Virus record (IMG/VR): IMGVR_UViG_3300035704_000393
Span: 9,677-73,676 of that record
Length of the DNA stretch: 64,000 bases
Origin: a virus
Reading direction: 5' to 3' (one strand)
The notes under the pieces are model-generated. The model had not been told where the DNA came from. It worked only from the letters and a program-made list of their open reading frames with translations, and did not search any database. Positions 8,005-34,697 of the stretch are shown piece after piece. Position 1 is the first letter of the stretch, and the number at the start of each line of letters is the position of its first letter. Made by a program: the position numbers and the translations under genes.

Positions 8005-8006
8005 CG

Positions 8007-15284: not shown

Positions 15285-15403
15285 CAGGCCCTCACCTGGC
15301 CGTAGACAATCAGCTGGAGCACGGCCAGCGCCGCCGCGAACAGTACCGCGGCGACCACCAGGATGGCCAGCTCGATCAGCCGCATCCGCCACCACCGGCT
15401 CAC
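15281..15403 (-). CDS. Small single-TM protein
   Basis: GTGA-coupled; SRWWRMRLIELAILVVAAVLFAAALAVLQLIVYGQVRAW. Confidence 0.5.
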   Translation of the reverse strand: MSRWWRMRLIELAILVVAAVLFAAALAVLQLIVYGQVRAW

Positions 15404-15837: not shown

Positions 15838-15865
15838 GGCGGCATCGTAGCGGAAGGAGGCGGTC

Positions 15866-18800
15866 ATGCCGGCCCGAACGCGGATGAACGGCGTGCCGAC
15901 CACCCCCGTCGGCCGCCCCGATGTGGTCTGGGGGCTCCCCGGGCAAGGGGGATTGCTCACCGAATGGGCCGAGACAGTTCCGGATCTGACGTGGCCGGAA
16001 TCAATCCGGACATACGGGAGAATGCGCCGGGACAGCAAAATAGCAGCCGTTCTCAGCGCATTCTTCATGCCCATTCTCCGCACAAACTGGGCGGTCGACC
16101 CGGAAGGCGTCACCAAGGCTAAGGCGGTCGACCTGGTAGCCGCGGACCTGGGCCTGCCCGTGCTCGGCCAGAAGGGGCCGCCGCCCGCGATGGCCACCGT
16201 GCCCGGGTTCCACTGGGGCGAGCACCTGCGGCTGGCGCTGCTGCACTACATCTACGGGTTTTTCCCCTTCGAGCGCTGGTACAACGCCAAGTCCAAGGAC
16301 GGCCTGACCCATCTGGCCGGCCTGGACGAGCGGCTGCCGCACACCATCGCGCTGATCGACCTGGCCGACAACGGGCAGATCAAGTCGGTTACGCAGAACA
16401 CCCAGCTGAACCCGCTTACCGCTAACCGCCTTTTGTGGTACGTGAATGAGCGCGAAGGCGCGAACTGGGCGGGCGTGTCAATGCTCCGCGCGGCCTATAC
16501 CCCGTGGGTTCTCAAGCACGAGACAATGCGCGTTCATGCCACCAGCATCCGCCGGTGGGGAATGGGAATGCCGGTCGTCAAGGCGCCCCCCGGCGGCACC
16601 CCCGGCCAGGTCTCCCAGGCGCAGCAGCTCGCCTCGGGGATGCGGGCCGGGGACACCGCCGGCGTCGGCCTGCCCGACGGGTTCAGCGTCGAGATCGCCG
16701 GGATGACCGGCTCCGTGCCCGACGCGCTCGGGTTCCTGAACTACTGCGACCAGCAGATCGCCTCCGCGGCGCTGGCCGTCTTCCTGGAACTCGGCCTGTC
16801 CTCCGGCGGCGCCCGCGCCCTCGGCGACACGTTCCTGGACATGTTCCTGCTGTCGCTCCAGGCAGCCGCTGACGCGATCGCCGACACCATCTCGTACGGC
16901 GTGCCCGCCATGCCGGGCATCGCCCGGGCGCTGACCGACATCAACTTCGGCGAAGACGAGCCGTGCCCGCGGATCGTCGCGACCGACGTCGGCGACCGGC
17001 ACGAGATCACCGCCACCGCGATCCAGCAGCTCGTCATGTGCGGCGCCGTCCAGCCCGACGACGGCCTGGAAGCGTTCATCCGGCAGGCGTGGGACTTCCC
17101 CGCCCGGACCACCCCGCGGACCCCCCCGGCACCGCCCAAGGCCCCCGGGGCGCCCGGCGGCCCGCCGAACCCGGCCGCGCCGTCCAGCCCGAATCCGGCC
17201 GCGCCCGGCCCGCAGCCCGGCGCGCCCCGGCCGCTCACCGGCCCGCCCGGCCGCCGCGGCGGGCAGCCCGCCACCGGCCCGGCCCGCTCTGCCGGCGGAC
17301 CGACAGCAGCCGCCGGCGTGGAAGCAAGCGCCGGCGGCGGCCTGCGACGCCCTCTGACGGAGCTGGAGGCCGCCGCCGGGCTCGACCCCGAAGCCATGCG
17401 CGCCGACCTGGAAACCGCCACCAGCCGGGTACTCGGCCAGTGGGGGTCCGTGCTCCGCGCGCAGCGCGCCGACCTCGCCGACCAGGTAGCCGCCGCCGTC
17501 GATGACGGGCAGCTGCACCAGCTCGCCGCCCTCCAGGCCCCGTCCGGCGACGCCGCCGACGTGCTGTACCGGGCGATGGCCGCAGTCGCCGCCCGCGCCG
17601 CCGGCCGGATGGTCGCCGAAGCGGCCGGGCAGGGCGTCACCATCAACCTGGCCGACGTCGCCATCAACCACCCCCGGCTCCGGCAGCTCGCCACGGCCCG
17701 GGCCTTGATGGCCGGCCAGACGCTGGCCACCGCCGCGTCCCGCCGTGCCCTCCAGGTCGTCACCGCCACGGCAGGCACCGACGCCGCCCGCGAAGTCACC
17801 GCTGTCCTGGCCGGCCTGTCACCCAAGCCGCTGGCCGACCAGCTGACGGCCGCGATGCACTCCGCCGCCAACGAGGCCCGCTTCGCCGTGCTCGACGCCG
17901 GCCCCGGCGCCACCTACACCGCCACCGAGCTGGCCGACGACCCGAACTGCTGCCAGCCCTGCCACGACGTCGACGGCCACCAGTTCGCCAGCCTCGCGGA
18001 TGCGCGAGCGTCCTACGCCAACGGCGCCTACATCCACTGCCTCGGCGGGCTCCGCTGCCGCGGCACCGTCGTCGCGTCCTGGCCCGAGGAAGGCGGGCAG
18101 CCCGCCGAGCCCGGCTGGCCGCACAACCTGACCCCGCCGCCCGACCTCACCATCGGCCCGGGCGTGGCCGCCGGGTTCGACCCCGGCGAGCGACGCGACC
18201 CGCACACCGGCCAGTGGACCGGAGAAGGCGGCAGCACGGCCCGCACCCTGACCCGCAAGGGCCACGGGAAGCTATCCGCCGTCGACCGGCTCGGCGCCAT
18301 CCGCGCCGACGGCACCTTTGAGCCCATCACCGCCGCCGAAGGCGCCCGCGGCGACTCCCGGCCCGTGTCGATGGCGGAGTTCCAGCGGCTCGCCGCCGAA
18401 GGCCGCGAGAAGCTCGCCCGGTTCCGCGCCGAGTCCGCCGCACCCGCCGGCCTGGACGCCAAATGGGACACGATCAAGAACGACGCGTGGGCCGAGGTGC
18501 AGAAGCCCTGGGGCGGCGCCACCATCGACGCGCACACCGGCGAGCCCCTCCAGACCGCCGCCGCGCGGTACGCGCTCACCGTCAAACCGGTCGACCTGGA
18601 CCCGGTGTCGGTCCCGGAGAAGGCGTCCGAGGCCCAGTTCAAGGCCGCGATGGACGAAGCCCGGCGGCGGTTCGCCGACCAGCTCGCCGCCCGGCAGGCA
18701 TACCTCGGCGTGTTCCACGACGACGACCAGGGCCGCATCGACATCGACCCCACCCTCGTGGTCGACAACCTGCACGACGTCGAGACCATCGGCGCGTTCA

Positions 18801-21800
18801 CCCACGCCATCGGCGGCGCGTACAACTTCGCCGACGGCAACGGCTACTGGCCACCGCACGTCGCCGAGCAGGCCGGGCTCGCCCCGGCCGCCGCCGCCAA
18901 GGACGACGAGCAGGGCAAGCCGGTCCCGTTCAAGGGACCCGGCCAGTGGCGCACCCAGGCCGACAAGGCCCGCCGCGACGCCCTCAAACGGCTCCAGGAG
19001 CAAGGCGGCAGCGACGAGCACGCCGGGCCGGACACCACCACGGCCACCGCGGTCCGCATCGACGTCACCCTCAACCCCGGACACGACCTGCCGGACTGGC
19101 ACCAGCCCGACCACGGCACCCTGGCCTCCGCCCAGGACGAAATCGGCAGGCTCCGCGACTGGCCGGGCGGCGGCGCGGCGATCCGCGAGGTGGTGGTCCG
19201 CCCAAAAGGTGAAGCCGCCCACGCGGCGGCCGACACCCCAGGCGGGGCCTGGACGGTCCGCTACGTCTTCGCCCGCTCCCGGCCGGCGTTCGACCCCCGC
19301 GAGGCCCGCGACACCGCCGGCCGGTGGACCAGCACCGGCCTCAAAGAGGCCCTCCGCCTGCCCGGCGCCCACCGCATCGACGCCGCCGACCAGCCCGGCC
19401 ACGCCATCATCGCGTTCGGCGACCCGGCCACCGCCCGCCACGTGGTCACCTACGTGCCCGGCGTCGGCGACGACAAGGGCCTGCCCGGCGAGGCCCGCCG
19501 CGCGCTGGCCACCAGGCGCGCCGCCGACGCCGAACACAAGGGCGACTCGGCCGTCATCCTCTGGCAGGGCTACCACCGGCCCGGCAGCTTGCACGACGCA
19601 CTGTCCAAGACCGACGCCCTCGGCGGCGCCCCCGGCCTGGCCGCCTTCGAGCAGCACCTACGGCAGATCAACCCGTCCGCACACCAGACGGTCATCGGCC
19701 ACTCCTACGGGTCCGTCGTCGCCGGCGAAGCCGCCCGCCTGCACCACATGCGCCCCGACGACCTGGTATTCGTCGGCAGCCCCGGCACGACCGCCCGCAC
19801 GGTCACCGACCTGGGTATGGACCCACGGCACGTGTGGGCCGGGGCACACACCCAGGACCCCGTAGCCCGCCTCGCCCCGGTCCTGTCCGAGGACTTCCAC
19901 GGCAGCCCCACCAGCCTGGACTACGGCGCCCAGCCGTTCGCCGCCGACACACCCGGCCAGGAGTTCCCCGGCGTCTTCCACGGCGCCGCGCACTCGTCCT
20001 ACTGGTCCGGCACGAGCCAGGCCCTGCCGAACATGGCGGCGATCGCCGCCGGAGACTACGGCAAGGTACTCCGCAAACGACCCGCCCCGGTCACTGTCTC
20101 GGCCAGCCACGCCGAAGCCGCCACCCTAGTCACCGCCGCACTCCGCCAGGATGACGCCGCCCCTGTCGCGGCCGGCTCCGACTTCGACCTGAAGCACCCC
20201 CGCGGCTACCACGGCCGGTTCGGCCACGGCGTAGGACCGCCCCGCAAGACCCGCATCCCCGCCGGCCTGGACAGCGGCGACCGCAAGATGATCGCCGACC
20301 AGCTCACCGCCTGGGCCAAGGCAGAGAAGGACGACAGCCTCAAAACCGCCCTGGGCATGGTCGCCACGAGCTACGCGGACGGCGACTACCCCGGCGCCGC
20401 CTACCGCCTCCGCCTCGCCGCGGACCGCGCCGCCCAGCTCGGTCGCCCCCTCGACCACGACCAGATGAACACCATCGCCGGGCTGATCGGCAAGCTCGGC
20501 ACCGGCGGCGGCGGCGAAGGCTACCCCGGCCAGCACCGAGACCAGATCAGCAGCCACTGGCGGGCCGAAACCGACCCCGAAGCCAAACAGCACCTCAACG
20601 TGGCCGGCGCCGCCTACGGCAACAACCAGTACGACCAGGCCGCCGACGAACTCCGCGAGGCCGCCGGCCGCGTCGGCCCCCTCGGCCGCACCGCCGACCG
20701 GGACACCTACCTCGCCCTGGCCGACGCGATCGAGCAAGAAGGCCAGGACAACGGCATCAGCCACGCCGCCCAGCTGCTCACAGCCATCGGCACCGAAACC
20801 GACGCCACCAACGTCGGAACCATCGCCGACCAGCTCAGCTACGCGCACCGCGTCATCGAAGCCGCCCACCAGGGCACCCGGTGGCGTTCCCAGGCCGCCG
20901 GGTACCTCCGCCAGGCCGCCGACCTCGCCCGCGCCACGGGAGACAGCCAGGCCGCCAACCGGTACGAGAACCTCGCCCACCGGGCAACACACCTGCCCGA
21001 CGAGCAGGCACCCGGCGACCGCGACGTCACGGCCCTGCTCGCCAGGGCCGCACCCGACGTCCCGGAGCTGCTCGGCGGCGGCGACCAGCGGTGGAACGGC
21101 CGGCTCGGCACGTTCACCAAGACCGACCAGCCCGACTACCTCGGGTTCACCTACCCCGACGGGCACATCGAGTTCCGCACCGACGTCGTAAACGGCCTGC
21201 TCGACGCCCAGGCCCACCCCGGCAAGGTAATGCCCGAACCCGACAACCTCGACGTCGTGCTCCACGAGCTGATCCACGACACCACCGGCGGTCGCACCGA
21301 GCAGGACAAGAAAGACTGGGCCGCGCTGCCCCCCGCCGAGCAGAACGCCCTGGGCGGCATCCACGAGATGGATCAGCACGACGACCCGTCCGGCCGCGGC
21401 AACCCGATCGCCCGCGCCCCCAGCCAGATCCAGCGGGTCCACCTGTGGATCACCAAGGCGCAACTCGACTCGCTCGTGTCCCGCGGGCTGATGGAGAAAA
21501 CCGGCACCAGCAGCGGCGGCGGGGACGGCTCGCTGGAGCCCGACATCCGGCTGGCAGGCAAAGCCCTCCGGATCATGCCCCATGCCGACAGCGCCGCCGA
21601 CGGCGACGCTTACACCTCCGTGACCGGCCACGACATCGAGGAAGGGTTCACCGAGCTGGGCTCCACCCAGCACATGGAGCAATTCGCCAAGGACCAGGGA
21701 TTCGCCCAGGTGATGACCCCGCGGCTATCCGTCGCGCCGCTGGGCACCCCGCCCACCGAGAAGCAGGTCCTCGACGTCCAGGACGACCTGAAAACCCTGT

Positions 21801-24800
21801 ACGACGACGCCGGGAAGGTCGGCGGCCAGCCCGGGTCGCTGGAAGCCTACGTCACGCTCAGCAACGCCATCCACGAGATGGAGTCGATGACCGGCCCGGA
21901 CGCTGACACCACCGCCTACGCCGGGTACCTCGCCCAGGCCGCCCGCACCCAGCCAGACCCCCTCATCCGCAGGCGGATCAACGACCTGATGACCCGGCTC
22001 GGCATCACCGGCGGCGGCACCGTCGACAACCCGGCTTACGACCGGGCTGTCACCCGGCTGATCGGCGACCTCCAGAAGCAGTGGGCCAAGCTGTCCGGCG
22101 ACCAGCGCCCGCCCTACCAGCAGGCCGCCGAGCACCTCGGCGGCATGATCGAGGACCTCAAAGCCGACCACGCCCAGCTGGCCGCCTACGACTTCACCGG
22201 CCGCGACTTCTCCACCACCGGGCACGCGCTGGCCGAAATCCAGCACCTGGGCGACCCCGGCCTGGCCAAGTGGGCCATCAAGATGAAAGCCCAGGCGGCC
22301 AAGGCCCAGCAGATCCCGGCGGCCCGGCACGACACCGTACCCGAGTACGCCCACGGGCTCGCCGCCCCCGCCAAACTCGCCTCCAGCGGGTCGTGGGGCC
22401 ACTACCCGATCCTGACCGCCAACGCCCAGCAATGGGTCCAGTCGATCGCCCGCAGCGAACACAAAACCGGGCTCGGCAAGCAGGGCACAGCCGGGTACAA
22501 GCGGACCGTCGAGCTGGCCGACGAGATCAACCGGGAAGGAACCGCCGGGAAGATCACCGCGATGGCCCGCCAGGTCCTCCGCAACCAGGGCATCGACCCC
22601 GACACCGCCGACCCCTCCGTGCTCGCCGACGTCCGCGACGAGATCATCGCCACCTACGGCGACCCAAGCTCGGCCGGGCACGGCGCCGCCGCCGCCTACA
22701 AAGCCGCCCGCCGGGTCGCTAGGCAGCGGCAGCAGGGATACCAGCGGCAAGGCGGCACGATGGTCAAATTCGGCGCCGCCGCCGACGACGCCGACGACGA
22801 GGACGCCCAGCCGCCCGTCAGCGCCACGCTGACCCCGGCCGGCGCGCAGGCCGAACGGATCAGGGCCTGGGCCTGGCACGACCCCGGCGCCCGCCTCGAC
22901 CAGGCCAGGGCGCAGGTCCGCCAGCTCGCCGAGCAGACCACCGACCCGGCCGCCCTGCGCCAGGTCCAGGACGCCGGCCGCAGCCTGGCCACCCTCGCCG
23001 CCCTCCGGCAGCCCGCCGCCGGCCCCGCCGCGGCGTTCCGCCCGGACGAGGCGCGCGACCCGCACACCGGCAAATGGACGGGCGGCCCCGGCAGCACCGT
23101 CACCGCCCGCGAGCGTGTCACCGGCGCTAACGGCGCAGTACAGCCATCCCTGACCACCGCCCAGCAGCAGCACCTGGCGGCAGCCGCCAGGGCCGCGAAA
23201 AAGACCATGACACCCGCCCAGCGGCACGCCGTCGAGCAGTGGACCAGCGCCCGCGGCATGGTGCACCGTATCCAGGCCGGCCAGGTCTCCGACGCCACCG
23301 CCACCGCGTTCGACCAGGCCATGCACGCCGCCCCGAAAGTCGACGGCCTGGTCTACCGCGGAGTGCTGCCCGGCAGCCACGGCGCCCAGGTCGCCGAGCA
23401 CCTGACCCCGGGCGACATGCTGACCATAGACAAGCCGGTATCGACCTCGGCCGACCCCCGGCAGGCGGTCTCATTCGGCAACGACCTGTACGAAATCGAC
23501 TCGCCAGCGGCGGCCTACGTCTCCGGCGTCGCCCCCGGCTACGCCTACGAGAAAGAAGCCGTCCTGGCCCCCGGCCGGTACCAGGTCGTCAGCACGGAAA
23601 CCGGCAAGATCAACTACCTCAGCGTCCGCAAGACCGGTCCCGTCCGCATCATCCGGCTCCGCGACGTCACCACCGGCGACCGGACCTGGCGGCCATCCGC
23701 CACCGCAGCCACCCCGGCCGCCGCGGCGCCGCCCGGCGGCGAGGACAACCGGGCGCACCGGTTCCTGGACGGCGCCGGCACCGGCGAGTTCACCCCGGCC
23801 GGCACCCTCGCCGCAGCCGGCGTGGTGACCGCAGACTCCGACTTCGAGCGCAAGCACCCCCGCAGGCCCGACGGGAAGTTCGGCCACGGCCCCGGCGGAA
23901 CCGTCCGGCCCGACAACGACCAGCTGATCACCGACAGCCTGTACCGCCTGTACCAGGCCGAGCAGGACCCCGACGCCCGCGCCGCCGTCCAGCAAGCCGG
24001 CCGCGCCTACGCCGACCACGACCTGCCCGCCGCCGCCCGCGCGCTCCGCGACGCAGCAGGCCACGCCACCAACCCCGGGATCTACACCTACCTCGCCGGC
24101 CGCGTCGAGGACCGCCACGCCGCCCAGGCCAGCGAACCCGCCAGGGCGATCGCCGTCGCCGGCCCGGCCGCCAGGGCCACCGCCGCGGCCCTGGACAAGG
24201 CCCTGGCGTCCGGCGGGGAACACGACACCAGGCCCGGCGAGGACCTCCCGGCAGGCTCCGACGAGCGGCGCTTCTTCGGGAACACCGCCGACACGGCCAT
24301 CGTCACCTACGCCGACGGGTCCAAGTGGGTCCGCAAACGCGGCAACCGCCTGCACCCCTTCACCAACGATGACGTCAACCACGAAGTCGCCTACGCCCGC
24401 GTCGCCCGCGCGCTCGGCATCCCCGCCCCCATCGCCATCAAGCACACCGGCCCCGACGGCCGGCCCGAACTGTACGAGCCGTTCGTCACCGGCGGCATCC
24501 CCGCGATCGAATGGACCGGCGGCCTCGACCCGACCGAAGGCGACGACCCCGAACCCGGCCGCGACCCCGCCCAGCTGTACGACACCCGCGAAGGCCGCAT
24601 GATCGGCCTGGCCGACTCGATCGCCGGAACCTCCGAACGGCACCTCGGGAACTGGCTCGTCGTCCACGACGCCGCCGGCGACCACCCCGTCCCGATCGAC
24701 AACAACGACGCCACCTTCGGCCCCGTGTTCGGGTCGATCACCCCGTTCGCCGACTTCGACCCGCCCCAGCTCGCCGCCGAAACCGACGCCGACGAGTGGG

Positions 24801-24922: not shown

Positions 24923-26571
24923 CGACCCTCGCCGTGTACTCCGCCACCCGCCTCCTGGGCGAGATCACCCTCGACGGCAAGAGGCTGACCGGTTCCACCC
25001 CCGCGCTGCAAAACGTCGCCGACGTCGTAGCCCAGCGGGCCGGCGGCGACGTCGCCAAGGCATACGCCGCGCTGACCGGCTGGACCAACGGCTACCTCAC
25101 CATCACCACCGCCCCGGCCGCGGCAGGCGGCGGAGCACAGGCCGCGGCCTGGGACCCGGCCAAACACCGGCGCAAAAACAGAGGCCAGCCCGGCGGCGGC
25201 GAGTTCACCGACACGGACGGCGCCGGCCTGCCGCCGGTCCCCGACCTGTCCAAGATGAGCCGCGACCAGCTCATCACCCTGCTAGCCGACCAAGCCGGGT
25301 GGGTTGTCGACCATAATCTCGGCGGCCACCCGGAAGCCAGGGAACGGCTCCGCGCGATACGAGACGCGCTGCACGCCGGACCCGCCGGCCAGGCGCCCGG
25401 CGGCCCCCGGCCAGGCACCCCCGAGGCGCTGCTCGCCAGCATGACCGGGAACTACGACATCGAACCCGGCGTGCCCGCCGCGCAGAAACAGCACATCGCC
25501 GCCGCGCTCGCCCGGCTCCCCGCCCCGGTCCGCCAGGACATCAAGAACTACGGGACGATGCGGCAGGTCTCCATCCGCCAGCACAACTGGCAGACCGAGG
25601 CCCCCGAAGGCACCGTCACCGCGATCGGCAGCTACAACACGGACAGCCGCACCCTGACGATCTCCGCCGACTCCGGGGACGCAGCCCAGACAGCGGTCCA
25701 CGAATCGCTGCACGCCTGGGACCGGGGACCAACCGGCGCCCCCGGCCGGTTCTCCCGCCAGCCAGACTTCACCGCGATCGCCGGCCTGATCCGCGACGCC
25801 GCCCGCCGCCACCCCCGGCTGGCCGACCCGCACTACGCACCGGCCGGCGCCCCGCCCGGCCGCCTGGGCCAGCGGCTGCTCGACGCGGGCAACGCGGAGA
25901 TGTTCGCCGAACTCGGCGCCGACTACCTCGCCGGCTACCCGTACAACCTCCATGACCGGGGCTCGGCGACCGGGGCGCTGCCCCCGCCCATCCGCGCCAG
26001 ACTGGACGCCTACTACACCGGCGTCTTCCACATCCCCCGCAAGCCCGCCCGGCGCACGACAGCCGCCGCGGCGGACGCCGCCGACCTGACGGCCCTGTCC
26101 TGCGTCAGGACAACCAACCCGCCCAGCTGGCTCTTTACCACCGCCGACGGCACGGCAGTCAGCCCCGAGACCGGCGAGCCCGCAGCGCCCGGCGCTGCCG
26201 CCGCGGCATCCCGGACCGACGAAGCCCGCGGCCCGGATGGCCGGTGGATAGGCGGCGACGCTCACGGCCGGTTCTTCCACGGCACCCGGGCCACCTACGA
26301 ACCAGGCCGGGTGCTCAGCGGCCAAGTGCACTACTACACCGGGTACCGGCCCCAGGCGGCGAGCTACGCCCAGGGCGCCACACAGCACGGCCCGGCCCGC
26401 GTCTACCAGGTCGAGCCCATCGAGGGCCACGAACGCGACCCGGAGTATCCCGACACCGGCGAGAAGGTCCAGTGGCCGCCGGGCGGCGCGTGGCGAGCCC
26501 GCAAGGTCCGCGTGATCCGCGAGGTCAGCCACTCGGAGATGCCCCAGCCGGAGGACACCCCCGCGGTTTAG
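24919..26571 (+). CDS. Head-cargo polyprotein 2 (550 aa): lethal-factor-like HExxH metallopeptidase plus Arr-like ADP-ribosyltransferase
   Basis: ATGA overlap with the portal stop. GSYN...HESLH...EMFAE; FFHGT...YYT...ASYA...RVYQVEP...ERDPE...VRVIREV. Confidence 0.75.
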   Translation: MTTLAVYSATRLLGEITLDGKRLTGSTPALQNVADVVAQRAGGDVAKAYAALTGWTNGYLTITTAPAAAGGGAQAAAWDPAKHRRKNRGQPGGGEFTDTDGAGLPPVPDLSKMSRDQLITLLADQAGWVVDHNLGGHPEARERLRAIRDALHAGPAGQAPGGPRPGTPEALLASMTGNYDIEPGVPAAQKQHIAAALARLPAPVRQDIKNYGTMRQVSIRQHNWQTEAPEGTVTAIGSYNTDSRTLTISADSGDAAQTAVHESLHAWDRGPTGAPGRFSRQPDFTAIAGLIRDAARRHPRLADPHYAPAGAPPGRLGQRLLDAGNAEMFAELGADYLAGYPYNLHDRGSATGALPPPIRARLDAYYTGVFHIPRKPARRTTAAAADAADLTALSCVRTTNPPSWLFTTADGTAVSPETGEPAAPGAAAAASRTDEARGPDGRWIGGDAHGRFFHGTRATYEPGRVLSGQVHYYTGYRPQAASYAQGATQHGPARVYQVEPIEGHERDPEYPDTGEKVQWPPGGAWRARKVRVIREVSHSEMPQPEDTPAV

Positions 26572-26762
26572 TCCTCGGCCTGGCGGAACAGGGTCCCCAC
26601 GCCGCCGTCCCCGGGCGGATTATCTCCCCCGCGGACGTCCCGCTGGTCCAGCTCCAGGCAGGTCACGCAGACGAACCCCCGGTAGAACGGCTTCCAGAAG
26701 CCCACCCCGGCGCAGCCAGGACGCCGCCTCCGGCACTCGCCAGCTACCTGCTCGATGAACAT
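26568..26762 (-). CDS. Small antisense Cys-containing protein
   Basis: Fills the only gap in the head module; CxxC; stop overlaps the preceding stop. Confidence 0.35.
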   Translation of the reverse strand: MFIEQVAGECRRRRPGCAGVGFWKPFYRGFVCVTCLELDQRDVRGGDNPPGDGGVGTLFRQAED

Positions 26763-26809
26763 GCCTCAGCTTAAACCGCCGGGGCCGAAGCGCACACGGG
26801 AGGCCGCTG

Positions 26810-29800
26810 GTGCCCTACACCACCGCTGGCGGCTGGGCCAGCCTCGACCTGGCCGGCCCGCCGCCCGACCTCACCGGGTGGCTAACCGGCGCCGCCGCGA
26901 TACCCGGCAGGCCCTGGCACGTGGTGATCGAGAACCACCCCGGCTGCACGCCCGACAAGCCGCATGGCATCGTGGCCGGCGGCGAGCGGCTGCTCGCCTG
27001 CCACGCCACCCCCGAAGAGGCCCGGGCGATCGCCGAGAAGCTCGACCTGTCCGAACCATCCGGCGTCGGCGACAGCAGCACCGGCGGGACCAGCGCGGCG
27101 TTCGACCCGGCCAGGCACCCGCGGATCGAGCACGGCCACGGCGGCGGCGAGTTCACCCACAACCCGTTCGGCATCCCCGCGCCGACCCCCGGCACCGCCG
27201 GGCACCTGCACGACGGGATCACCGACCCGCCCCCGTCTCAGGCGCTGAAAATGAAGGGCGCGTTCACCCTCGCCGGCCTCGGCCCGGACGACAAGCTGCT
27301 CGGCAAGGTCAACGCCAAGCTCACCCGGCCGCTGATGGGCGCCGGCCCGAACAAGGGGAAAGTCCGCCGCCCCGCCGTCCCGCCCTACCGGCAGTCCGTC
27401 ACGAAAACCTCCGCCGCGATGATGGCCCTGATCGAACAGCAGGGCACCCTCGAAGAGGGCAAGAAGTGGTACCCCGACGAGCACGAGATGAACCACCGCC
27501 GGGCGCTGGCCTACCACGTCCCGATCGACCGCGCGATCGGCGTCGAAGCCGCCACCTGCCCCCGCGTCCAGTGGATCATCAACCAGCGGGTCACCAACGA
27601 GCTGCTGGACGAGGTACCCAAAGCCGGCCGCACCATCGAGAAGATCAAGATCGCCCACCACTTCGGCGGCGGCGTCATGGCCAGCTTCCGCGACGAGGGC
27701 GTCGACATCATCCTGAACGGCGACGTCGACCACGTGCTCGGCGGCACCAAACGCCGCAACTTCTACAACAACATCATGTGGCCCGGGCAGACCGATTCGG
27801 TCACCGTCGACACGTGGATGCTCCAGGCCCTCAAGCCGCTCGGCCTGAACGACCAGCAGGCAATGGCGCTCGGCGAGCAGTCCGTGGCCGGGCTGGCCGA
27901 CGGGCTCGGCAAGGTCATCGTCGCCGACGCGCTCCGCGACGCCACCGCCCGCTACCGCGCGCAGGGCGTCGACATCACCCCCGACGGCGTGCAGGCCGCC
28001 GCCTGGATCGCGATCCAGAAGCAGCTCGGCCTGTCCGACCCCTCCGCCCACGACAACCCCCGCGACACCGCCTACATGCTGCACGCCGCGTTCCGCAGCG
28101 AGCTGCACCCCCGCACCGGCAAGGGCCAGAAGGGCGCCGGCGAGTTCGCCAGGCTGGAGCTAGGCGGCGGCGGCAGGCACACCGGCCCGGGCTCGTTTGA
28201 GCACATCCGCTCGATCGAGCACCTCGCCGACGAGATCGACACCGCCAACCTGGCCGGCGGCGGCGGCCGGTCCGAGACCGCAGCCGCGCTGCGGAACGTG
28301 GCCCGGCACGTCGGCCTGCGGCAGGTCGACGTGGCCAGGCAGCACATGGCGGTCGCCCTGGCCGCCGCGAAACGCGACAAGCTAGGCGACCTCCAGATGC
28401 GCGACCTGCGCGCCATTGCCGCAAGCCTGGACAACATCCCCAAGGGCACCTACCCCGAGCCCGGGTTCGGCGAGCGCGCCAAGGACGAGGAAGCGCCCCC
28501 GTCGATCCAGCGGCACCGCCGCCAGGGGCCGGGCTACTTCCCCTCCCGGGTCCACCAGGCGGCAGCCCAGCCGGACCCGGACGACGACGGCGGCGAGCTG
28601 ACCGACGACCAGTGGGACGCCGAGCTGCTGCTCCAGTACCTGGAGTGGCTCGCCGAAGCGGTCCCCGGCGGCGTCGACCTCGGCTCGCCCGGCTCCGCCC
28701 GCCTCACCGGCGGGCTGGCCGCGGACAACCCGGCCGCCTGGAAACTCGCCCTCGCAGACCCACGTTTCGGGAGGCTCGGCATGACCACCGCCCAGGCCAG
28801 GCAGGCCGCCCGCGGCACCGCGCCGCCACCGCCAGCCGCACCGCAGGCCGCCTGGAACCCGCTGAGGCACCCGCGTAACAAGCAAGGCGAATGGACCGCG
28901 GACGGCGCCGCCAAAGACATCGCGACGTCGGCGAAGTCCGTACACCCGAACGTCTGGAACATGGGCGGGGGCGGCGCCGTCGACGCCCTGCACCGCGGCG
29001 ACCTGCGCGAAGCCCAGGCCAACCTGGCCCGCGCCCGCGACTTCGCCGCGCTCACCCACCGCGACCAGGACCAGGCGGTGATGCAACGGCACCTCGATGC
29101 CGTCACCGAGCACCTCAAGACACCCGCCCAGCGGGTCGCCGAGATGGAGCAGGCAGACAAGCCGCTGATCAACCGGGCCGAGGTCACCGCCGAGCCGAAC
29201 TACCCCGGGTCGGCCGCCAAGAATGTCCACGACAGCGACGGCAACCTCGTCGGCATGGTGTTCCCGCACCCGGACGGCAAGGGCGGCTACCAGGCCACCG
29301 ACGATCAGGGCGCCAAGATCGGACTAGACCGGATGCCAAGTGAGGACGCGGCTATCGGCGAGGTGGTCGCCGAGCGGAACCGCAAGCAGCTGACCGCCGC
29401 CGCCGCCAGCCAGCCCGCCGGCCCGGTCACCGTCCGGGAGAACCACCCGGAATGCCCGGCGCACGCCCCGCACGGCACCGTCGACTCCCGCACCGGCGAG
29501 CTGGTCATGTGCCACCGCACCAAGGACCAGGCCCAGGACCTGGCGCTCACCCTGAATTTCCCCGACGCCACCCCGGTCACGCCCGGCGCCGTCATGCAGG
29601 TCGGTGCGGCCAAGGGCGGCTTCCGGGAGGACCTGCACCCGCGCCGCGGACGCGGCAAGGGCGGCGGGGAGTTCGCCCCCAAGGGCCAGGGCGGCGGGCA
29701 GCCCGCCAGCCAGCGCACCCTCCAGCGGCGGCGGCAGGCCGAGGTCCGGCGGCACCCCGGCAGCCCGCCGGCCAGGCCCGGGCAGCCCCCGCCCGGCGCC

Positions 29801-30181
29801 GCTGGGATGATGGCCGCCCCGCAGGCCCAGCTTGCCGCAGCCGACCTGTCCCGGCTGATCAGCGATCAGGTCGCCCAGGCCACCGACCGGCTCTCCCGCG
29901 AACAGCACGAGCAGCTCCGCGAGGTCAGGGCCGAACTGGAGCGCAGCCAGGCCGAGCTGGCCGAGCTGCACAAGACCGAAGCCAAAACAGAGGAAGCGGC
30001 CAAGGAAAAAGGCAAGACCGTCCGCAAGCTGATCCACCACGTCCTCGCCCTGGCGGCCGTCGCTGTCCTGACGTTCATCGGGGTCAAGACCGGCAACCTG
30101 GAGAACCCGATGTTCGCTGGCCTGGCCGCCACCGGCCCCCTGTTCCTCCAGGAGGCCCTCGACGCGGTGAAGCGGGTCTGA
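26810..30181 (+). CDS. Head-cargo polyprotein 3 (1123 aa): duplicated ENHPxC...CH mini-domain, HhH-glycosylase-like (DUF7178-like) domain, coiled coil, C-terminal TM hairpin
   Basis: GGGAGG RBS plus GTG; GKKWY...AATCPRVQW...KRRNFYNNI...VTVDTWM...TPDGVQAAAW; four tag motifs. Confidence 0.7.
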   Translation: MPYTTAGGWASLDLAGPPPDLTGWLTGAAAIPGRPWHVVIENHPGCTPDKPHGIVAGGERLLACHATPEEARAIAEKLDLSEPSGVGDSSTGGTSAAFDPARHPRIEHGHGGGEFTHNPFGIPAPTPGTAGHLHDGITDPPPSQALKMKGAFTLAGLGPDDKLLGKVNAKLTRPLMGAGPNKGKVRRPAVPPYRQSVTKTSAAMMALIEQQGTLEEGKKWYPDEHEMNHRRALAYHVPIDRAIGVEAATCPRVQWIINQRVTNELLDEVPKAGRTIEKIKIAHHFGGGVMASFRDEGVDIILNGDVDHVLGGTKRRNFYNNIMWPGQTDSVTVDTWMLQALKPLGLNDQQAMALGEQSVAGLADGLGKVIVADALRDATARYRAQGVDITPDGVQAAAWIAIQKQLGLSDPSAHDNPRDTAYMLHAAFRSELHPRTGKGQKGAGEFARLELGGGGRHTGPGSFEHIRSIEHLADEIDTANLAGGGGRSETAAALRNVARHVGLRQVDVARQHMAVALAAAKRDKLGDLQMRDLRAIAASLDNIPKGTYPEPGFGERAKDEEAPPSIQRHRRQGPGYFPSRVHQAAAQPDPDDDGGELTDDQWDAELLLQYLEWLAEAVPGGVDLGSPGSARLTGGLAADNPAAWKLALADPRFGRLGMTTAQARQAARGTAPPPPAAPQAAWNPLRHPRNKQGEWTADGAAKDIATSAKSVHPNVWNMGGGGAVDALHRGDLREAQANLARARDFAALTHRDQDQAVMQRHLDAVTEHLKTPAQRVAEMEQADKPLINRAEVTAEPNYPGSAAKNVHDSDGNLVGMVFPHPDGKGGYQATDDQGAKIGLDRMPSEDAAIGEVVAERNRKQLTAAAASQPAGPVTVRENHPECPAHAPHGTVDSRTGELVMCHRTKDQAQDLALTLNFPDATPVTPGAVMQVGAAKGGFREDLHPRRGRGKGGGEFAPKGQGGGQPASQRTLQRRRQAEVRRHPGSPPARPGQPPPGAAGMMAAPQAQLAAADLSRLISDQVAQATDRLSREQHEQLREVRAELERSQAELAELHKTEAKTEEAAKEKGKTVRKLIHHVLALAAVAVLTFIGVKTGNLENPMFAGLAATGPLFLQEALDAVKRV

Positions 30182-33100
30182 TGGCCGCCGCACCGCCCCC
30201 GGCCGACCAGGCGAAGGCCGCGGCGGGACTCCTGAAGCTGTTCACCGGCGCAGGCGCCAGCCAGGCCGACGCGCAGGCCGCCGCCGACCACTACGTCGCC
30301 GCAGCCGAGAAGATGATCACCTCCGGCGACTACGCGCTCCCGGCTGGCGGTGCCAGCACCGCCGCGGCCTGGAACCCGGCCGCGCACCCGCGCGCCCCGG
30401 CCGGCGGCCCGGCCGGCGGTCAGTTCGCCCCCGGCGGCACCGGAGCGGCGCCGACCAACGCCAAGCCGGTCGGCGAGGGCGCCAAGGGGCCGCAGGTCCG
30501 CCAGCTCCAGGCCCGCCTCAAGGCGCTCGGCTACAACATCGCCGTCGACGGCATCTTCGGCCCGCAAACCCTCGCCGCGGTCAGGCAGTTCCAGGCCAGC
30601 CACCTGGACGCCAACGGCAAGCAGCTGAAAGAAGACGGCCTGGTCGGCCCCCTGACGACCAGCGCGCTCCGGCAGAAAACCCCCGCCAAGTCCGGCGCCA
30701 AGGGCCGGACCTCCAAGACCGGCGGCACCACGAAGACGAGGACGACGCCGAAGCCCGGGACCGCCAGGACGACCACAGGCAAGAAGACCACAGGCAAGAA
30801 GTCCCCCACCACGGCCAGAGCGATCACCCGGGGCAAGGCGCAGATCGCCAAGACCGCCAAGACGAAGACGACCAGCCCGGCCACGACCGGCGTGGCCGCC
30901 AACGACGTCCCCGGGTCGGTCACCAAGCCGCAGCAGGCCGCGGTCACCAACGAGCTGACGCTCCGCAAGATCCCCCCGGCCCAGGCCCAGGCGTTCAAAG
31001 CCGACCTGACCCGCCTGTCCCGCAACGACGCCACCGCGCTGCTGGCCTACATCCGGAACACCTACACCTTCGCCAGCGCACCCTCCGGCGACGTGTCGGC
31101 GCTGTCCGGCTTTGACGAGAACGAGACCCGCGACACCCACGGCCGGTGGACTACCGCCGAAGGCGGCCCCGGCTCCCCGGCCGCCCGGCTCCACGGCAAG
31201 CAGGTGCGCGGCCACACCCCCGAAGGCAACGACGTCCGCGGCCGGTACGACCACAACACCAAGGAAGTCCTTGACCGGTTCGGCGGCCGGCACAAGGTCA
31301 CCCGGGTCCGGGAAGAAGACCCGGTGTCCGCCGCTGGCGGCCAGTCCAACCGGGGTAACGCCGAGACCCTGCACCGCTACTGGGGCACCGGTGAAGGCGC
31401 CGCGAAGATCCGGTGGGGCACTGACGGGGACCACATGCGGTGCGTCCGCCAGCTCATGGAGCACGGCCACTTCACCGAAGAACAGGCCCACGGCTACTGC
31501 AACTTGATGGAAAAGCGGGTCACCGGCGAATACCCCGCCCAGCACGCCCACCGGGAGAAGGCCGCCGCCGGTGACACCCCGGCCGGCCTGCCCGCGCTGG
31601 TCACCATCCCCGGCGTGGACATCCTCGCGGCCGGCACCTGGGCCTTGTCGACCGGCAGGCAGACGTTCACCGCCGCCGACCTCCAGTCCGCCATCGACGC
31701 GTCCGAATGCCCCGCCGTCGGGCAGCCGGTGATCAAGATCGGCCACCTGGACCCGCGGTTCGCGCCGCAGCCCGAGCACGACGGCGAACCCGCCATCGGC
31801 CGGGTGATGAACCTGCGGCTGTCCGGCAACGGCGCCAAGATCGTCGGCGACCTGGCCGGGATGCCCGGCTGGCTCGCCGGCATCGCAGCGTCCGCCTTCC
31901 CCCGCCGCAGCGTGGAGGGCAAATACAGGTTCAGGTGCCAAATCGGGCATCAGCACCCCTTCGTGCTGACCGGCCTCGCCCTACTGGGCGTCACCCCACC
32001 CGGCGTCGGCGTGCTATCCGGCCTGCCGGACGTCGCAACCCTTTACGGCCTCACCGCCGCTGCCGCGCAGGCGGGCCAGGCGTGGCGCACCGAGCAGGAC
32101 CAGGAAGGAACCGTGATGGCCGTCACCGAAGAGGATGTCCGGCGGCAGTACTACGCCACCGCCGGCGCTCCCCAGTCTTGGTGGATCACCGAACTCCAGA
32201 TGTTCCCGCCGCAGCTGATCGTCGCCGACGAGCAGTCCGGCAAGATCTACCGCGTCGGATACCGCATCGACGGGTCCGCCGTCGCGTTCGACCAGGCCCA
32301 GGAGGTGGCCTCCTACGCCGACGTCGCCGCTGCCCGCGGCACCGGCCCGGTCGTCGCCTACGCCTCCGCGGCCGACTCCCGGGCCGTGATCCTGGCCGCC
32401 TGGGACGGCGCCGCAGCGGTCCGCCAGCTCGGCGACAACCCCTCCAGCGGCACGCTCAGGGCCATGTTCGCGATCCCCGGCACAACCAAGTCCGACAGCT
32501 CCCTGCCCCACCACGACGTGTCCGGCGGGAAGGTCGGCGCGGCCAACCCGGACGCCTGCTCCGCCGCGATCGCCGCGCTGAACGGCGGCCGGGGCGGCAT
32601 GAAGGGCGTCTCCGCGTCGCAGGCCAAGGCCGCCTACAGCCACCTGGCCTCACACCTGCGCACCGCCGGCCGGACCCCGCCCGACTTCTCCGGCGCCCAG
32701 GACGGCGACGGCGACGGCGTGGACTGGCAGACCGAGCCGGCCGAGCAGATCGGCTGGCAGTTCGCCTACATCGCCGCGACCTACGGCGGGCAGGACCCGC
32801 CCGGCGCAGAACCGGACGGCGGCCAGGAGCCCGGCACCGAACTGGAGCCGGGCTCTCTTGCTGCCCGGTGGCAGCGGCTCCTGGAGATCCGCGCCGCGGC
32901 CACCGACACCGACGCCGACGACACGGTGCAGGGCCTGGTCGCCAGCCTCGACGCCACCCTCGACCAGGCCGCCGCCCTGGCCGGCCAGGTCGACCCCAAG
33001 GCGGTCCCCGAAGCCGCCGGGCAGGTCCTCGCCCTCGTCGTCGCGGCGGAGGCCCTGGTCGACCAGCTGATGGACAAGCTCGGCATCTACGACCCCGACG

Positions 33101-33945
33101 ACACCGACAGCGACACCAGCGCCGCCGCCGAGCCCGACGAGGACGGCGGCGAGGGCGTGGCCGCAGCCGGGGACACGGTGCACGAGCCGATCCACGGCAA
33201 CTTCGACGGGTCCCACTCCCACCCGCACCGCGCGTACGGCACGCAGGGCTCCGACGAGACCCACGAGCACAAGCACACCCACTCCGGCGACGGCCGGCAC
33301 GATCACGCGCACGCAGAAACCCAAGCCGCAGCAGACGCGGCGGCCACCCAAGAAGAAGGGAACCCGGGCATGGGCTACGAGTTCACGACAGCACAGATGG
33401 CCGCGATCCGTGCGCGGCTCGGCAAGCAGGAAGGAGAGGAAGTCGCCGCCGGCGACATCGCCGCCGTGTTCGGCGCGCCGCAGCCCCCGTGGCCGGTCCA
33501 GGCCGCCGCGGCAGGCACCAGCGGCGACGGCCCGGTCGAGGTCCCGGTCATCGCCGACGGCGTGCACCTGGTCGAGGCCAACATCCTCCGCAAGTACCAG
33601 GAGGAAGCCCTCGCCGGCCAGCGGGCCGTCCGCGCCATGCACGTCGCCCAGCGCGACGGCATCCTCGCCGCGGCGATCAAGGACGGCAAGTTCGCGCAGT
33701 CCCGGCTGGAGCACTTCCAGACGCTGTGGGACCGGGACCCGGACGGCACCCGCAAGCTCGTCGCCAGCCTCGCCGGCGGGCTGGTCCCGATGGCCGCGGT
33801 GGGGTCCAACGGCGACTGGGCCAGCGACCCGGACATGCCCGGCGACTTCGACGCGCAGAGGGCGTACCGGGACCTGTACCCGGAAGACACGCAGGGCGGC
33901 GTCAGCCCCGCTCCGGGCGTGAGGGGCGGCGCCTACAGTGGCTGA
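30181..33945 (+). CDS. Prohead protease/scaffold polyprotein (1254 aa): PG-binding domain, Lys/Thr-rich segment, Mu gpI-like protease, His-rich loop, C-terminal scaffold
   Basis: TGATG overlap. PG-binding: VRQLQARL...VDGIFGPQTLAAVRQFQ...DGLVGPLT. Protease: VIKIGH...GEPAIGRV...FPRRSVEG...LTGLALLGVTPP. Scaffold: AAIKDGKF. Confidence 0.8.
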   Translation: MAAAPPPADQAKAAAGLLKLFTGAGASQADAQAAADHYVAAAEKMITSGDYALPAGGASTAAAWNPAAHPRAPAGGPAGGQFAPGGTGAAPTNAKPVGEGAKGPQVRQLQARLKALGYNIAVDGIFGPQTLAAVRQFQASHLDANGKQLKEDGLVGPLTTSALRQKTPAKSGAKGRTSKTGGTTKTRTTPKPGTARTTTGKKTTGKKSPTTARAITRGKAQIAKTAKTKTTSPATTGVAANDVPGSVTKPQQAAVTNELTLRKIPPAQAQAFKADLTRLSRNDATALLAYIRNTYTFASAPSGDVSALSGFDENETRDTHGRWTTAEGGPGSPAARLHGKQVRGHTPEGNDVRGRYDHNTKEVLDRFGGRHKVTRVREEDPVSAAGGQSNRGNAETLHRYWGTGEGAAKIRWGTDGDHMRCVRQLMEHGHFTEEQAHGYCNLMEKRVTGEYPAQHAHREKAAAGDTPAGLPALVTIPGVDILAAGTWALSTGRQTFTAADLQSAIDASECPAVGQPVIKIGHLDPRFAPQPEHDGEPAIGRVMNLRLSGNGAKIVGDLAGMPGWLAGIAASAFPRRSVEGKYRFRCQIGHQHPFVLTGLALLGVTPPGVGVLSGLPDVATLYGLTAAAAQAGQAWRTEQDQEGTVMAVTEEDVRRQYYATAGAPQSWWITELQMFPPQLIVADEQSGKIYRVGYRIDGSAVAFDQAQEVASYADVAAARGTGPVVAYASAADSRAVILAAWDGAAAVRQLGDNPSSGTLRAMFAIPGTTKSDSSLPHHDVSGGKVGAANPDACSAAIAALNGGRGGMKGVSASQAKAAYSHLASHLRTAGRTPPDFSGAQDGDGDGVDWQTEPAEQIGWQFAYIAATYGGQDPPGAEPDGGQEPGTELEPGSLAARWQRLLEIRAAATDTDADDTVQGLVASLDATLDQAAALAGQVDPKAVPEAAGQVLALVVAAEALVDQLMDKLGIYDPDDTDSDTSAAAEPDEDGGEGVAAAGDTVHEPIHGNFDGSHSHPHRAYGTQGSDETHEHKHTHSGDGRHDHAHAETQAAADAAATQEEGNPGMGYEFTTAQMAAIRARLGKQEGEEVAAGDIAAVFGAPQPPWPVQAAAAGTSGDGPVEVPVIADGVHLVEANILRKYQEEALAGQRAVRAMHVAQRDGILAAAIKDGKFAQSRLEHFQTLWDRDPDGTRKLVASLAGGLVPMAAVGSNGDWASDPDMPGDFDAQRAYRDLYPEDTQGGVSPAPGVRGGAYSG

Positions 33946-34315: not shown

Positions 34316-34318
34316 GCC

Positions 34319-34693: not shown

Positions 34694-34697
34694 GCCG

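Follow-up and report, generated by a model that had tools for sequence, protein, structure and literature searches.

Why would a phage put more than 13 kb of enzyme genes between its portal and its head protease? The interval is normally short, as the first-pass annotation of this DNA had noted. In Gordonia phage Vasanti and Rathayibacter phage NCPPB3778, whose portals are 39-40% identical to the one studied here, the protease gene lies directly 3' of the portal gene. The same is true of L011, the closest metagenomic relative. In the prophage described here, carried by a high-GC bacterium, ~16 kb of enzyme cargo lies between the two genes (~13.4 kb for the array proper, 18176-31590), and one short peptide recurs throughout it. 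The annotation had read this peptide as a reiterated tag that opens cargo modules. We argue that the tag is real, since its position on the N-terminal side of modules and the comparative evidence both support it.

Layout of the locus

The window, by which we mean the whole 64-kb stretch of DNA analysed, has TerL upstream of the array, with scaffold-like genes and the major head protein downstream (Table 1). The interval holds four ORFs, translationally coupled or adjacent, whose reported sizes are borne out by our ORF calls. They are phage-type polyvalent proteins: a portal and MuF-like fusion, ~15 cargo modules, a head protease and a scaffold. We read the region as an array of cargo set off by headers within polyvalent head proteins of a phage, where header is our term for the repeated peptide. 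The ORFs had been described as filling the space from portal to protease. The long cargo array is there, but it stops near 31590 and not at 33945, since the protease and the scaffold are themselves parts of ORF4. A chimeric assembly had been named as what would undo the whole proposal. It is ruled out: the exact ORF3 protein is recorded from 2 contigs and relatives of ORF1 and ORF3 (60-81% identical) are present on others, so the region is not an artefact.

The portal matches Portal_Mu (PF06074, ORF1 residues 48-394, E 2e-38) and phrog_113 (E 5e-71). The ORF4 protease is of the phrog_3894 type found in actinophages. This is the layout of a Mu-like head module, in which a Mu-type portal comes first and then a protease that has a scaffold part at its C-terminus; phage Mu itself has no header. 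The domain fused to the portal has a Cys/His pattern that resembles MuF by eye. ORF1 residues 450-775 give no match to PF04233 in Pfam or TIGR01641 in NCBIfam at E <= 1, and residues 683-738 match phrog_595 weakly (E 7e-4). We therefore call the domain MuF-like and do not assign it to the MuF / SPP1 gp7 head morphogenesis family.

Table 1. Features of the head-gene interval, positions counted from the first letter of the window
Feature	Position	Strand	Description
ORF1	15866..24922	+	3018 aa; portal and MuF-like domain, followed by six header-led cargo modules
Portal and MuF-like core	15893..18082	+	ORF1 residues 10-739; common to relative L011 (56% identity)
Header 1	18176..18220	+	E class; start of cargo array
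Cargo module A	18221..19288	+	conserved domain of unknown function and small second domain
Header 2	19289..19330	+	E class
Abhydrolase_8 (alpha/beta hydrolase) in cargo module 2	19394..19879	+	E 8e-31
Header 3	20183..20224	+	H class
Large cargo module after header 3	20225..23035	+	mostly helical; 60% identical in relative P0022
Header 4	23036..23080	+	E class
ART-like cargo module	23081..23842	+	local profile search
Header 5	23843..23884	+	H class
Kinase-like cargo module	23885..24919	+	weak PI3/PI4-kinase-like match (E 0.009, below curated cut-off); 59% identical in P0022
ORF2	24919..26571	+	550 aa; ATG overlaps ORF1 stop; short N-terminal stub, header 6, H-E-x-x-H-x-x-D module, header 7, Arr-like ADP-ribosyltransferase
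Header 6	25150..25209	+	long H form
Header 7	26209..26247	+	degenerate E class; first aromatic lost
Arr-like ADP-ribosyltransferase of ORF2	26272..26529	+	Arr-ms E 9e-5, just under cut-off
ORF3	26810..30181	+	1123 aa; Cys/His stub, headers 8-11 with modules
Header 8	27101..27157	+	long H form
DUF7178 in ORF3	27446..28024	+	between headers 8 and 9
Header 9	28091..28150	+	long H form; left edge of cassette missing in relative P0157
Header 10	28853..28897	+	H class; left edge of second cassette missing in P0157
Header 11	29621..29677	+	long H form; conserved in P0157
Predicted membrane helix of ORF3 (one)	~30029-30085	+	after header 11, with coiled coil
ORF4	30181..33945	+	1254 aa; ATG overlaps ORF3 stop; stub, header 12, peptidoglycan-binding domain, header 13, phrog_6439 domain, protease, scaffold-like C-terminus
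Header 12	30370..30429	+	long H form
Peptidoglycan-binding domain of ORF4	30487..30669	+	PG_binding_1
Header 13	31111..31152	+	E class; last header, ~160 residues before protease domain
Head maturation protease	31591..32406	+	ORF4 residues 471-742; phrog_3894 E 1e-81
Scaffold-like C-terminus of ORF4	33337..33837	+	scaffold-type matches at residues 1053-1219
Major head protein	36046..36987	+	phrog_1650 E 7e-69; without header

Headers and modules

All 13 reported copies of the motif translate as first written, and all fall within the four ORFs. Twelve are clean; the degenerate one at 26209 is present, but its start is one residue before the quoted one. We ran a regular expression for the two motif forms, with its first position loosened, over the six frames of the window. 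It recovered the 12 clean copies in the four ORFs and gave one extra match, a false one due to the loosening, and no further true copy. In 2000 composition-preserving shuffles of the 5945 residues the mean was 0.02 matches and the maximum 1. The two forms of the family are [FY]-D-P-x-[EQ]-P-R-D-x-x-G-[RK]-W-T and [WF]-[DS]-E-x-x-H-P-R-[DG]-x-x-G-[RK]-[FW], and they mix within single proteins. A cargo cassette is a header of 14-20 residues, usually a Gly-rich flexible stretch, and then the module. Within this genome it is the peptide that is conserved, since the DNA copies of the header share only 60-84% identity over 38-95 nt. The headers lie in predicted flexible linkers. AlphaFold gives them low confidence (pLDDT 31-55) next to a confident module core, and models an isolated header as a small turn (core pLDDT ~85).

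Module types include an esterase-like hydrolase, a kinase-like domain and two ADP-ribosyltransferase-like domains, as well as DUF7178, a peptidoglycan binder and a protein with a membrane helix. Module A is found ~47% identical in other viral contigs, where it also has a header in front; it has no Pfam, NCBIfam, PDB sequence or fold match. The large helical module, which matches no Pfam or NCBIfam family, contains an H-E-x-x-H motif (21263-21277, ORF1 residue 1800), and ORF2 has H-E-x-x-H-x-x-D at 25699-25722 (residue 261). The ART-like module of ORF1 is linked by local profile search to repeated modules of the giant header proteins P0008 and P0009, and PF18760 itself gives no match. In ORF3, header 9 is followed by a module and header 10 by a module with a second Cys/His domain. 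No cognate immunity gene was identified, only a putative 64-aa antisense ORF after ORF2. Domain profile searches found no portal, MuF, protease or scaffold domain in ORF2 or ORF3. Apart from the header, these two proteins appear to have no element in common with the anchored cargo.

Gain, loss and exchange of cassettes

The relatives show how the array changes. The portal-MuF-like protein of L011 is 56% identical to the ORF1 core and ends 32 residues past it, and the protease-scaffold gene follows directly. L011 has neither cargo nor header. Header 1 of ORF1 lies ~30 residues past the end of that same core. The ancestral layout was probably a portal-MuF-like fusion gene directly followed by a protease-scaffold gene, with the cargo inserted later. 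Relative P0157 is without exactly two cassettes, header 9 with its module and header 10 with its module. In P0022 an Arr-like module, a different ART type, replaces the one between headers 4 and 5 of ORF1. Its header is of the ORF1 header-4 type, not the type found before the Arr-like module of ORF2. Insertions, deletions and swaps between relatives start at or inside headers.

One can imagine from this that the header is mainly an evolutionary joint, a demarcation peptide for in-frame cassette recombination with little role in assembly. The edges at headers and the header-4 type kept with the swapped P0022 module are what such a joint would leave. However, DNA copies as divergent and short as these are a poor substrate for homologous recombination, and the peptide is kept across low-GC and high-GC lineages that use different codons. 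Recombination alone does not explain the strict N-side polarity either, or the use of the header at the start of single-module proteins. We consider this explanation very unlikely. The V-E-N-N motif of CdiA is a demarcation motif of this sort, found once, before the C-terminal toxin of secreted proteins. V-E-N-N type motifs share with the header a short conserved peptide at the boundary of module exchange, but the header is reiterated and tied to phage head genes.

The header family across phages

The header is not private to this prophage. A profile search of 1.84 billion proteins gave 294 multi-copy protein clusters at E <= 1e-3, and proteins of the wider family carry up to 19 copies. A narrow DNA pattern in which only 9 residues are specified hits at least 120 IMG/VR viral contigs. 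Almost all of these also carry the unspecified parts, an aromatic before the pattern and a T with a run of Gly behind it. Of 149 proteins, 80 have their first header no more than 50 residues from the protein start, and only 6 have their last one no more than 45 residues from the protein end. The median spacing from header to header is 223 residues. Dozens of proteins begin with a header 0-10 residues after the Met.

The genomic context is that of head genes. In 12 near-complete viral genomes, 43 of the 47 header matches have a marker for MuF or protease on their own strand at a distance of 15 kb or less. The survey of carriers covered annotated families, and many carrier ORFs are without annotation. 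Those with one are nearly all head or polyvalent proteins or enzyme effectors, so in this set the proposed confinement to head-module genes holds, as head-gene products and effectors. The recurrent architecture is an anchor (portal, MuF or protease), then a header, then cargo. In Nocardia phage P3.1 the header is at the N-terminus of an annotated capsid maturation protease. The head proteins themselves vary. Carriers have different portal families (Portal_Mu, Phage_portal_3) and at least three protease-type families: Peptidase_S78, DUF2213 and the phrog_3894 type of this prophage. Among 11 complete carrier genomes, 3 have Peptidase_S78, 4 have DUF2213 and 4 have neither, and PF04233 MuF is detected in 6 only.

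An Ala-rich linker had been reported before most copies. That is true in the window, but in the wider family Ala accounts for only 29% at the position before the first aromatic. The Ala context is a feature of the high-GC lineage and not of the motif family. A putative cut after these linkers by the Mu-like protease, releasing about a dozen modules for packaging and ejection, had been proposed as well; the comparison supports the tag but not this part of the proposal. The statement that no description of a repeated cargo tag was known agrees with our searches, which found no describing paper, Pfam or NCBIfam family, or PDB chain for the header. It is apparently a widespread, undescribed label of phage head-gene proteins.

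What the header may do

We favour a putative portable header for both loading and processing of capsid cargo, and from sequence comparison and models we would call the chances about even. It would be a short linear signal displayed in flexible linkers, and some core part of the head-assembly machinery would recognise it in trans. The header would bring free cargo proteins, such as the products of ORF2 and ORF3, into the prohead. It would also mark the linkers where cargo tethered to the portal-MuF or protease-scaffold protein is released, cut by the head protease or by the embedded H-E-x-x-H domains. The released pieces would leave with the DNA at infection. It must be noted that cargo already fused to portal or scaffold would not need a loading tag of its own, which counts against loading. 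It also counts against this reading that no candidate partner is as conserved as the header. A pure cut site or a role after injection fits the same distribution, since the genes of injected cargo lie among head genes in any case.

A pure cut site would make the header the recognition or cleavage site of a polyprotein-processing protease and give it no part in loading. Either the head maturation protease or the embedded zincin-like domains would then do the cutting. Such H-E-x-x-H domains have been proposed as the processing enzymes of polyvalent proteins, and an Asp three residues after the motif, as in ORF2, is described for phage-type polyvalent metallopeptidases (Iyer et al. 2017, PMC5512222). 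Portal-fused cargo needs release before ejection, the array ends in a protease, H-E-x-x-H occurs in both ORF1 and ORF2, and flexible linkers are accessible to proteases. However, a header right behind the Met leaves nothing upstream to remove, so an upstream cut is not its general purpose. The protease-type families of carriers are unrelated, which argues against one protease specificity recognising it. Neither H-E-x-x-H module matches a peptidase family in Pfam or NCBIfam, and the boundary between the portal and the MuF-like domain has no header. Known head-protease sites are as short as L-x-E for T4 gp21 and A-x-E for the phiKZ type, and 14 conserved positions are far above that need. We think a pure cut site is unlikely.

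A role after injection, in the host cell or during tail passage, is another route to the same pattern. The header could be a docking peptide for a conserved host factor, or a signal for unfolding and refolding or for translocation. Its restriction to head genes would then merely reflect where injected cargo is encoded. Conservation across very different hosts and head-protein families does fit a universal partner better than a fast-evolving capsid protein, and the header is exposed and flexible. But it is also found before or after proteins that do not leave the head (portal cores, the P3.1 protease). One host target is hard to imagine for esterase, peptidoglycan binder, kinase-like and ART-like cargo alike. 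This makes a post-injection role quite improbable.

The loading and processing header can be taken further. It may be a near-universal cargo-loading peptide, read by a conserved prohead feature in many unrelated tailed-phage lineages, which we offer tentatively as possible but doubtful. The feature would be the HK97-fold shell interior, the portal crown or the protease fold, and the two header classes might address different fates or readers. Encapsulins have a short conserved cargo-loading peptide on a flexible linker that brings cargo of many kinds into a shell of the HK97 fold. Divergence of the shells has left this peptide conserved, so a conserved tag with a diverged reader is possible. 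However, its sequence is different, it is usually a single C-terminal copy, and no DNA is packaged or ejected.

Comparison with known phage systems

The capsid targeting sequence of T4 is a short peptide N-terminal to unrelated cargo (internal proteins, Alt) encoded with the head genes. It loads this cargo into the prohead and is tied to processing by the head protease. There is a single copy, at the extreme N-terminus, which binds to the scaffold core, can load foreign proteins by itself and is cut off by gp21 at L-x-E. The header is likewise a short peptide on the N-terminal side of head-gene cargo. However, its sequence is unrelated, it recurs inside proteins in up to 19 copies, and in the window too the majority of copies are internal, so it is not a single N-terminal leader of the T4 type. 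It is also conserved across many phage lineages and protease families, the protease here being of the phrog_3894 type.

Phage-type polyvalent proteins are giant head-module proteins with many unrelated effector domains behind a portal, MuF or head protease. These domains include ARTs, Nudix, InPase and peptidoglycan-directed ones, and are predicted to be packaged and injected (PMC5512222; PMC9503650). ORF1-ORF4 share with them the unrelated effector-type domains in large polypeptides, encoded among portal-terminase head genes and fused to portal and head protease. They differ in that the cargo is spread over four ORFs, portal-fused at one end and with protease-scaffold at the other, and in that a single conserved peptide stands at the head of every cargo unit. 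The text of neither paper has a repeated header or linker motif. A zincin-like metallopeptidase domain is frequent in polyvalent proteins, though not obligatory; ORF1 and ORF2 have H-E-x-x-H motifs but give no peptidase match in Pfam or NCBIfam.

MuF polymorphic toxins of temperate phages join a MuF head domain to swappable C-terminal toxic or enzymatic domains in prophages, with one variable tip and an immunity gene (Jamet et al. 2017, PMC5576092). The text of that paper has no mention of a motif, linker or cleavage. With ~15 modules, no Pfam MuF match and no immunity gene identified, the array does not belong to this class.

Significance

Anti-defence and takeover enzymes are thought to be delivered together with the phage DNA as parts of polyvalent and MuF-fused head proteins. 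To our knowledge, how cargo enters the head, is separated and exits is known only for T4, P1 and a few giant phages. What is new here is that the motif is not private to one phage, that it is on the N-side of modules in flexible linkers with cassette edges at the motif, and that the closest relative is without both cargo and motif. From the comparison one can also see in what way arrays of this kind evolve: header-plus-module cassettes are gained, lost and exchanged. A strongly conserved header common to hundreds of these proteins makes the cargo question directly testable. The header is also an easy sequence mark by which to find injected cargo in metagenomes, family-less modules like module A and DUF7178 among it. 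Should the header alone be enough for loading, it would offer a general means of packing phage particles with proteins. If the near-universal reading is true, a tag of 14 residues would be all that any protein needs to enter capsids and be injected.

Four large ORFs and their headers

The first-pass annotation proposed a tag-and-cleave capsid cargo system built from four large ORFs and 13 copies of one short motif, and translation confirms both the ORFs and the positions of the copies. The motif opens cargo modules and is called the header here. Searched with a pattern for both of its forms, the ORFs yield 12 clean copies. Shuffled sequence gives a mean of 0.02 matches, and a six-frame scan of the 64-kb window gives one extra match, a false one due to the loosened first position of the pattern. 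Together these rule out chance and low complexity as the origin of the motif. Recent DNA duplication of the tag is ruled out too. The header DNA copies are just 60-84% identical, so the conserved thing is the peptide and not a DNA repeat. A chimeric assembly is also ruled out.

The source provirus record is 73.7 kb long, has 73% G+C and is an estimated 94% complete. Judging from sequence its host is probably an actinobacterium, since the portal and protease resemble those of Gordonia, Arthrobacter, Corynebacterium and Rhodococcus phages (36-45% identity). The portal-to-protease interval is truly expanded, as was claimed, because relatives with portals 39-63% identical have the protease gene directly 3' of the portal gene. 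The cargo does not run to 33945, however. ORF4 itself includes the protease, at residues 471-742, and its C-terminus is scaffold-like, so the cargo ends near 31590.

Features of the head region and its surroundings
Feature	Position	Strand	Remarks
G+C-rich stretch	2001-4000		83% G+C, well over window mean; within 1107-aa ORF (1065-4388)
terL	6365-7966		Start of head region
Other genes	7967-15865		~7.9 kb between terL and portal, unusual in a head module; ORFs of 438, 465 and 371 aa match no PHROG or give just a weak MarR-like hit
ORF1	15866-24922	+	
ORF2	24919-26571	+	
ORF3	26810-30181	+	
ORF4	30181-33945	+	
Headers 1-13	18176, 19289, 20183, 23036, 23843, 25150, 26209, 27101, 28091, 28853, 29621, 30370, 31111	+	
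Module A	18221-19288	+	Cargo domain
Helical unit, ~55 residues	20267-20692, 23900-24085	+	ORF1 residues ~1468-1609 (two copies, after H-class header 3) and ~2680-2740 (one, after header 5)
Small open frame	26568-26762	-	64 aa, four Cys; nearly fills ORF2-ORF3 gap
Small Cys/His-containing domain	26885-27064, 29402-29584	+	ORF3 residues ~26-85 and ~865-925; 36% identity; each just 5' of a header
His-rich acidic stretch	33181-33276	+	ORF4 residues ~1000-1035, scaffold-like part; two H-E-x-x-H strings
Four small tandem phrog_673 paralogs	33938-35929		Annotated head scaffolding protein; 125, 124, 239 and 133 aa; ~110-residue insertion in the third
Major head protein	36046-36987		Followed by connector gene

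Relatives have one to three phrog_673 copies: three in L011 (the closest metagenomic relative), two in L121 and one in Gordonia phage Vasanti.

Architecture and cargo

The architecture of ORF1-ORF4 is that of phage-type polyvalent proteins (PMC5512222). The N-terminal part of ORF1 is a Mu-type portal (PF06074, E 2e-38); a Pro-rich linker and a MuF-like domain come next. This domain has a Cys/His pattern resembling MuF and a weak match to phrog_595 only, with none to the Pfam or NCBIfam MuF models; the coordinates of the Cys/His patterns, and those of the predicted membrane helix in ORF3, derive from alignments. Recognisable cargo comprises Abhydrolase_8, an Arr-like ADP-ribosyltransferase, DUF7178, PG_binding_1 and a weak PI3/PI4-kinase-like match. 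Local profile search also ties another ART-like module to the modules that recur in other header proteins. Most of the remaining modules have no family in Pfam or NCBIfam. There are two H-E-x-x-H modules, one with a downstream Asp as described for phage polyvalent metallopeptidases, and neither matches a peptidase family. The His-rich stretch in ORF4 is probably low-complexity metal-binding sequence and not a peptidase. The small frame between ORF2 and ORF3 could be an immunity or regulatory gene, because ORF2 ends in the Arr-like ADP-ribosyltransferase.

Module A is about 47% identical between unrelated contigs (L034, L066, L073, L130). It lies behind a header in every contig that has it, is the last part of the ORF in those contigs, and is often in one ORF with DUF7178. 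Its AlphaFold model, from 5 sequences, has a core pLDDT of 62-90. It matches nothing in Pfam, NCBIfam, PDB sequences or a fold search, where the best Z was 4.7, on a small second domain. For the DUF7178 cassette, a search for homologs of shorter length returned one fragment.

The header family

A profile built from eight short header copies was searched against 1.84 billion representative proteins. It found 294 proteins at E <= 1e-3, all multi-copy, with up to 19 headers in a protein of 7334 residues and 17 in one of 5313; these counts are raw and ignore relatedness. By composition many carriers are not from high-GC organisms. There are two main forms, [FY]-D-P-x-[EQ]-P-R-D-x-x-G-[RK]-W-T and [WF]-[DS]-E-x-x-H-P-R-[DG]-x-x-G-[RK]-[FW], which occur together in 31 of 149 proteins. 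They co-vary at several positions, and the E/Q-versus-H position against the final aromatic has an odds ratio of 38 with phylogeny ignored. The H-class copies do not support a pairing in which the two aromatics compensate each other in size (p = 0.22). Five copies in the window have a third form, a longer version of the H form into which a Gly-rich loop is inserted; actinobacterial relatives keep it, often at protein residues 10-21.

A DNA pattern for D-P-x-E-P-R-D-x-x-G-x-W occurs in at least 120 IMG/VR contigs. Just before the pattern nearly all the listed contigs have the expected aromatic, and just after it a T and a run of Gly, although the pattern specifies neither. Each of the 131 carrier frames among the listed matches is a long ORF, with a median length of 559 residues. 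A tblastn search of cultured phages with short peptides gave 11 records. In header-rich proteins no Pfam or NCBIfam family matches the header, and a 67-sequence header profile found no PDB chain at E <= 10.

Genes that carry the header

It is worth considering which genes carry the header. Context statistics here are based on annotated families and marker distance. Pfam and PHROG tallies (33, 79 and 59 carrier proteins) contain ART-PolyVal, Alt-like ARTs, MuF, portal, head maturation protease, minor and major head proteins, Acb1, Nudix, InPase, Zeta toxin, topoisomerase IB and DUF7178. Tail, lysis and replication families are absent from the most frequent annotated families in these tallies. 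Individual carriers run from anchor to header to cargo. Portal_Mu or Phage_portal_3 is followed by a header and then InPase or ART, MuF by a header and cargo, and a DUF2213 or S78 domain by a header and more modules. Among cultured or curated phages, Xanthomonas PhiXhv-5, Faecalibacterium FP_Brigit and a Helicobacter prophage have annotated portal proteins whose C-terminal extension includes the header. In Nocardia phage P3.1 the header starts at residue 6 of the annotated capsid maturation protease, and Pseudomonas phage Orimi01 is another cultured carrier. None of the individual cases examined has a header ahead of the major capsid protein; the PHROG tallies do include 'major head protein' matches. 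No header was found in phage Mu.

Confinement to head-module genes had been proposed as a check. Scanning all six frames of 12 near-complete viral genomes with the profile gave 47 header matches, and for 43 of them a MuF or protease marker lies on the same strand no more than 15 kb away. All 7 matches in the window's own record fall within the four ORFs.

Position and structure of the header

In 80 of 149 multi-copy proteins the first header is within 50 residues of the start, and nearly all of these begin with Met. Several have only 0-5 residues ahead of the header. Only 6 of the 149 have their last header within 45 residues of the C-terminus, and headers are spaced by a median of 223 residues. 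On its N-terminal side the header has a small residue and a segment that is weakly hydrophobic, and on its C-terminal side a Gly-rich stretch. AlphaFold models a 100-sequence header alignment as a compact turn with one beta bridge (core pLDDT ~85). Its model of ORF1 residues 760-1160 has a confident module core, and the two headers next to it are in linkers of low confidence (pLDDT 31-55). From this polarity, flanking context and predicted linker placement, the header looks like an exposed short linear motif belonging to the module after it.

One can imagine a scenario where the header is a cut site only. We consider this unlikely. So many proteins begin with a header that a pure upstream cut site does not fit them well.

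Evolution of the array

The portal-MuF-like protein of L011 is 56% identical to ORF1 residues 10-739. It ends 32 residues later, has neither cargo nor header, and is followed by a protease-scaffold gene. Header 1 is about 30 residues past the end of this shared core, which implies that the cargo array was inserted and has a header at its start. P0157, a relative of ORF3, is 71-76% identical to parts of it and has a header 9 residues after Met. It is without ORF3 residues 428-584 and 679-864, and the first of these gaps starts at header 9, the second four residues ahead of header 10. P0157 also has the Cys/His domain. P0022 is 60% identical to ORF1 and has an Arr-like module between headers 4 and 5; here that module is in ORF2, and ORF1 holds another ART-like module between the same headers. 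P0022 also has the helical unit. The header could be a recombination joint between such modules, which we regard as very improbable.

What the header may do

The packaging and injection of enzymes fused to portal, MuF or protease is a published idea (PMC5512222, PMC9503650). The polyvalent-protein framework and capsid-targeting peptides are already known. We found no description of the header in open-access main-text literature, Pfam, NCBIfam or PDB sequences.

Portal-fused cargo would have to be released by proteolysis near the headers, a step required by logic. Candidates for carrying it out are the head protease and the two H-E-x-x-H modules. It is unlikely that a single protease specificity reads the header, because the carriers differ. 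Among 11 complete carrier genomes, S78 is found in 3, DUF2213 in 4 and neither in 4, and the window phage has a phrog_3894 type. A single protease family as reader is thus unsupported. It must be noted that a phrog_3894 search matched nothing, the controls included. MuF is a candidate universal partner: PF04233 is found in 6 of the 11, by an insensitive model that misses the window's own MuF-like domain.

The chief problem is that no likely partner is as well conserved as the header. This leaves room for a host-directed or translocation role, or for a conserved structural pocket as the reader. We think it distinctly unlikely that the header acts after injection.

We put the chances at about even that this is a loading-and-processing header. 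A putative loading role is suggested because the anchor-less ORF2 and ORF3 share only the header with anchored cargo, and by the precedent of capsid targeting in T4.
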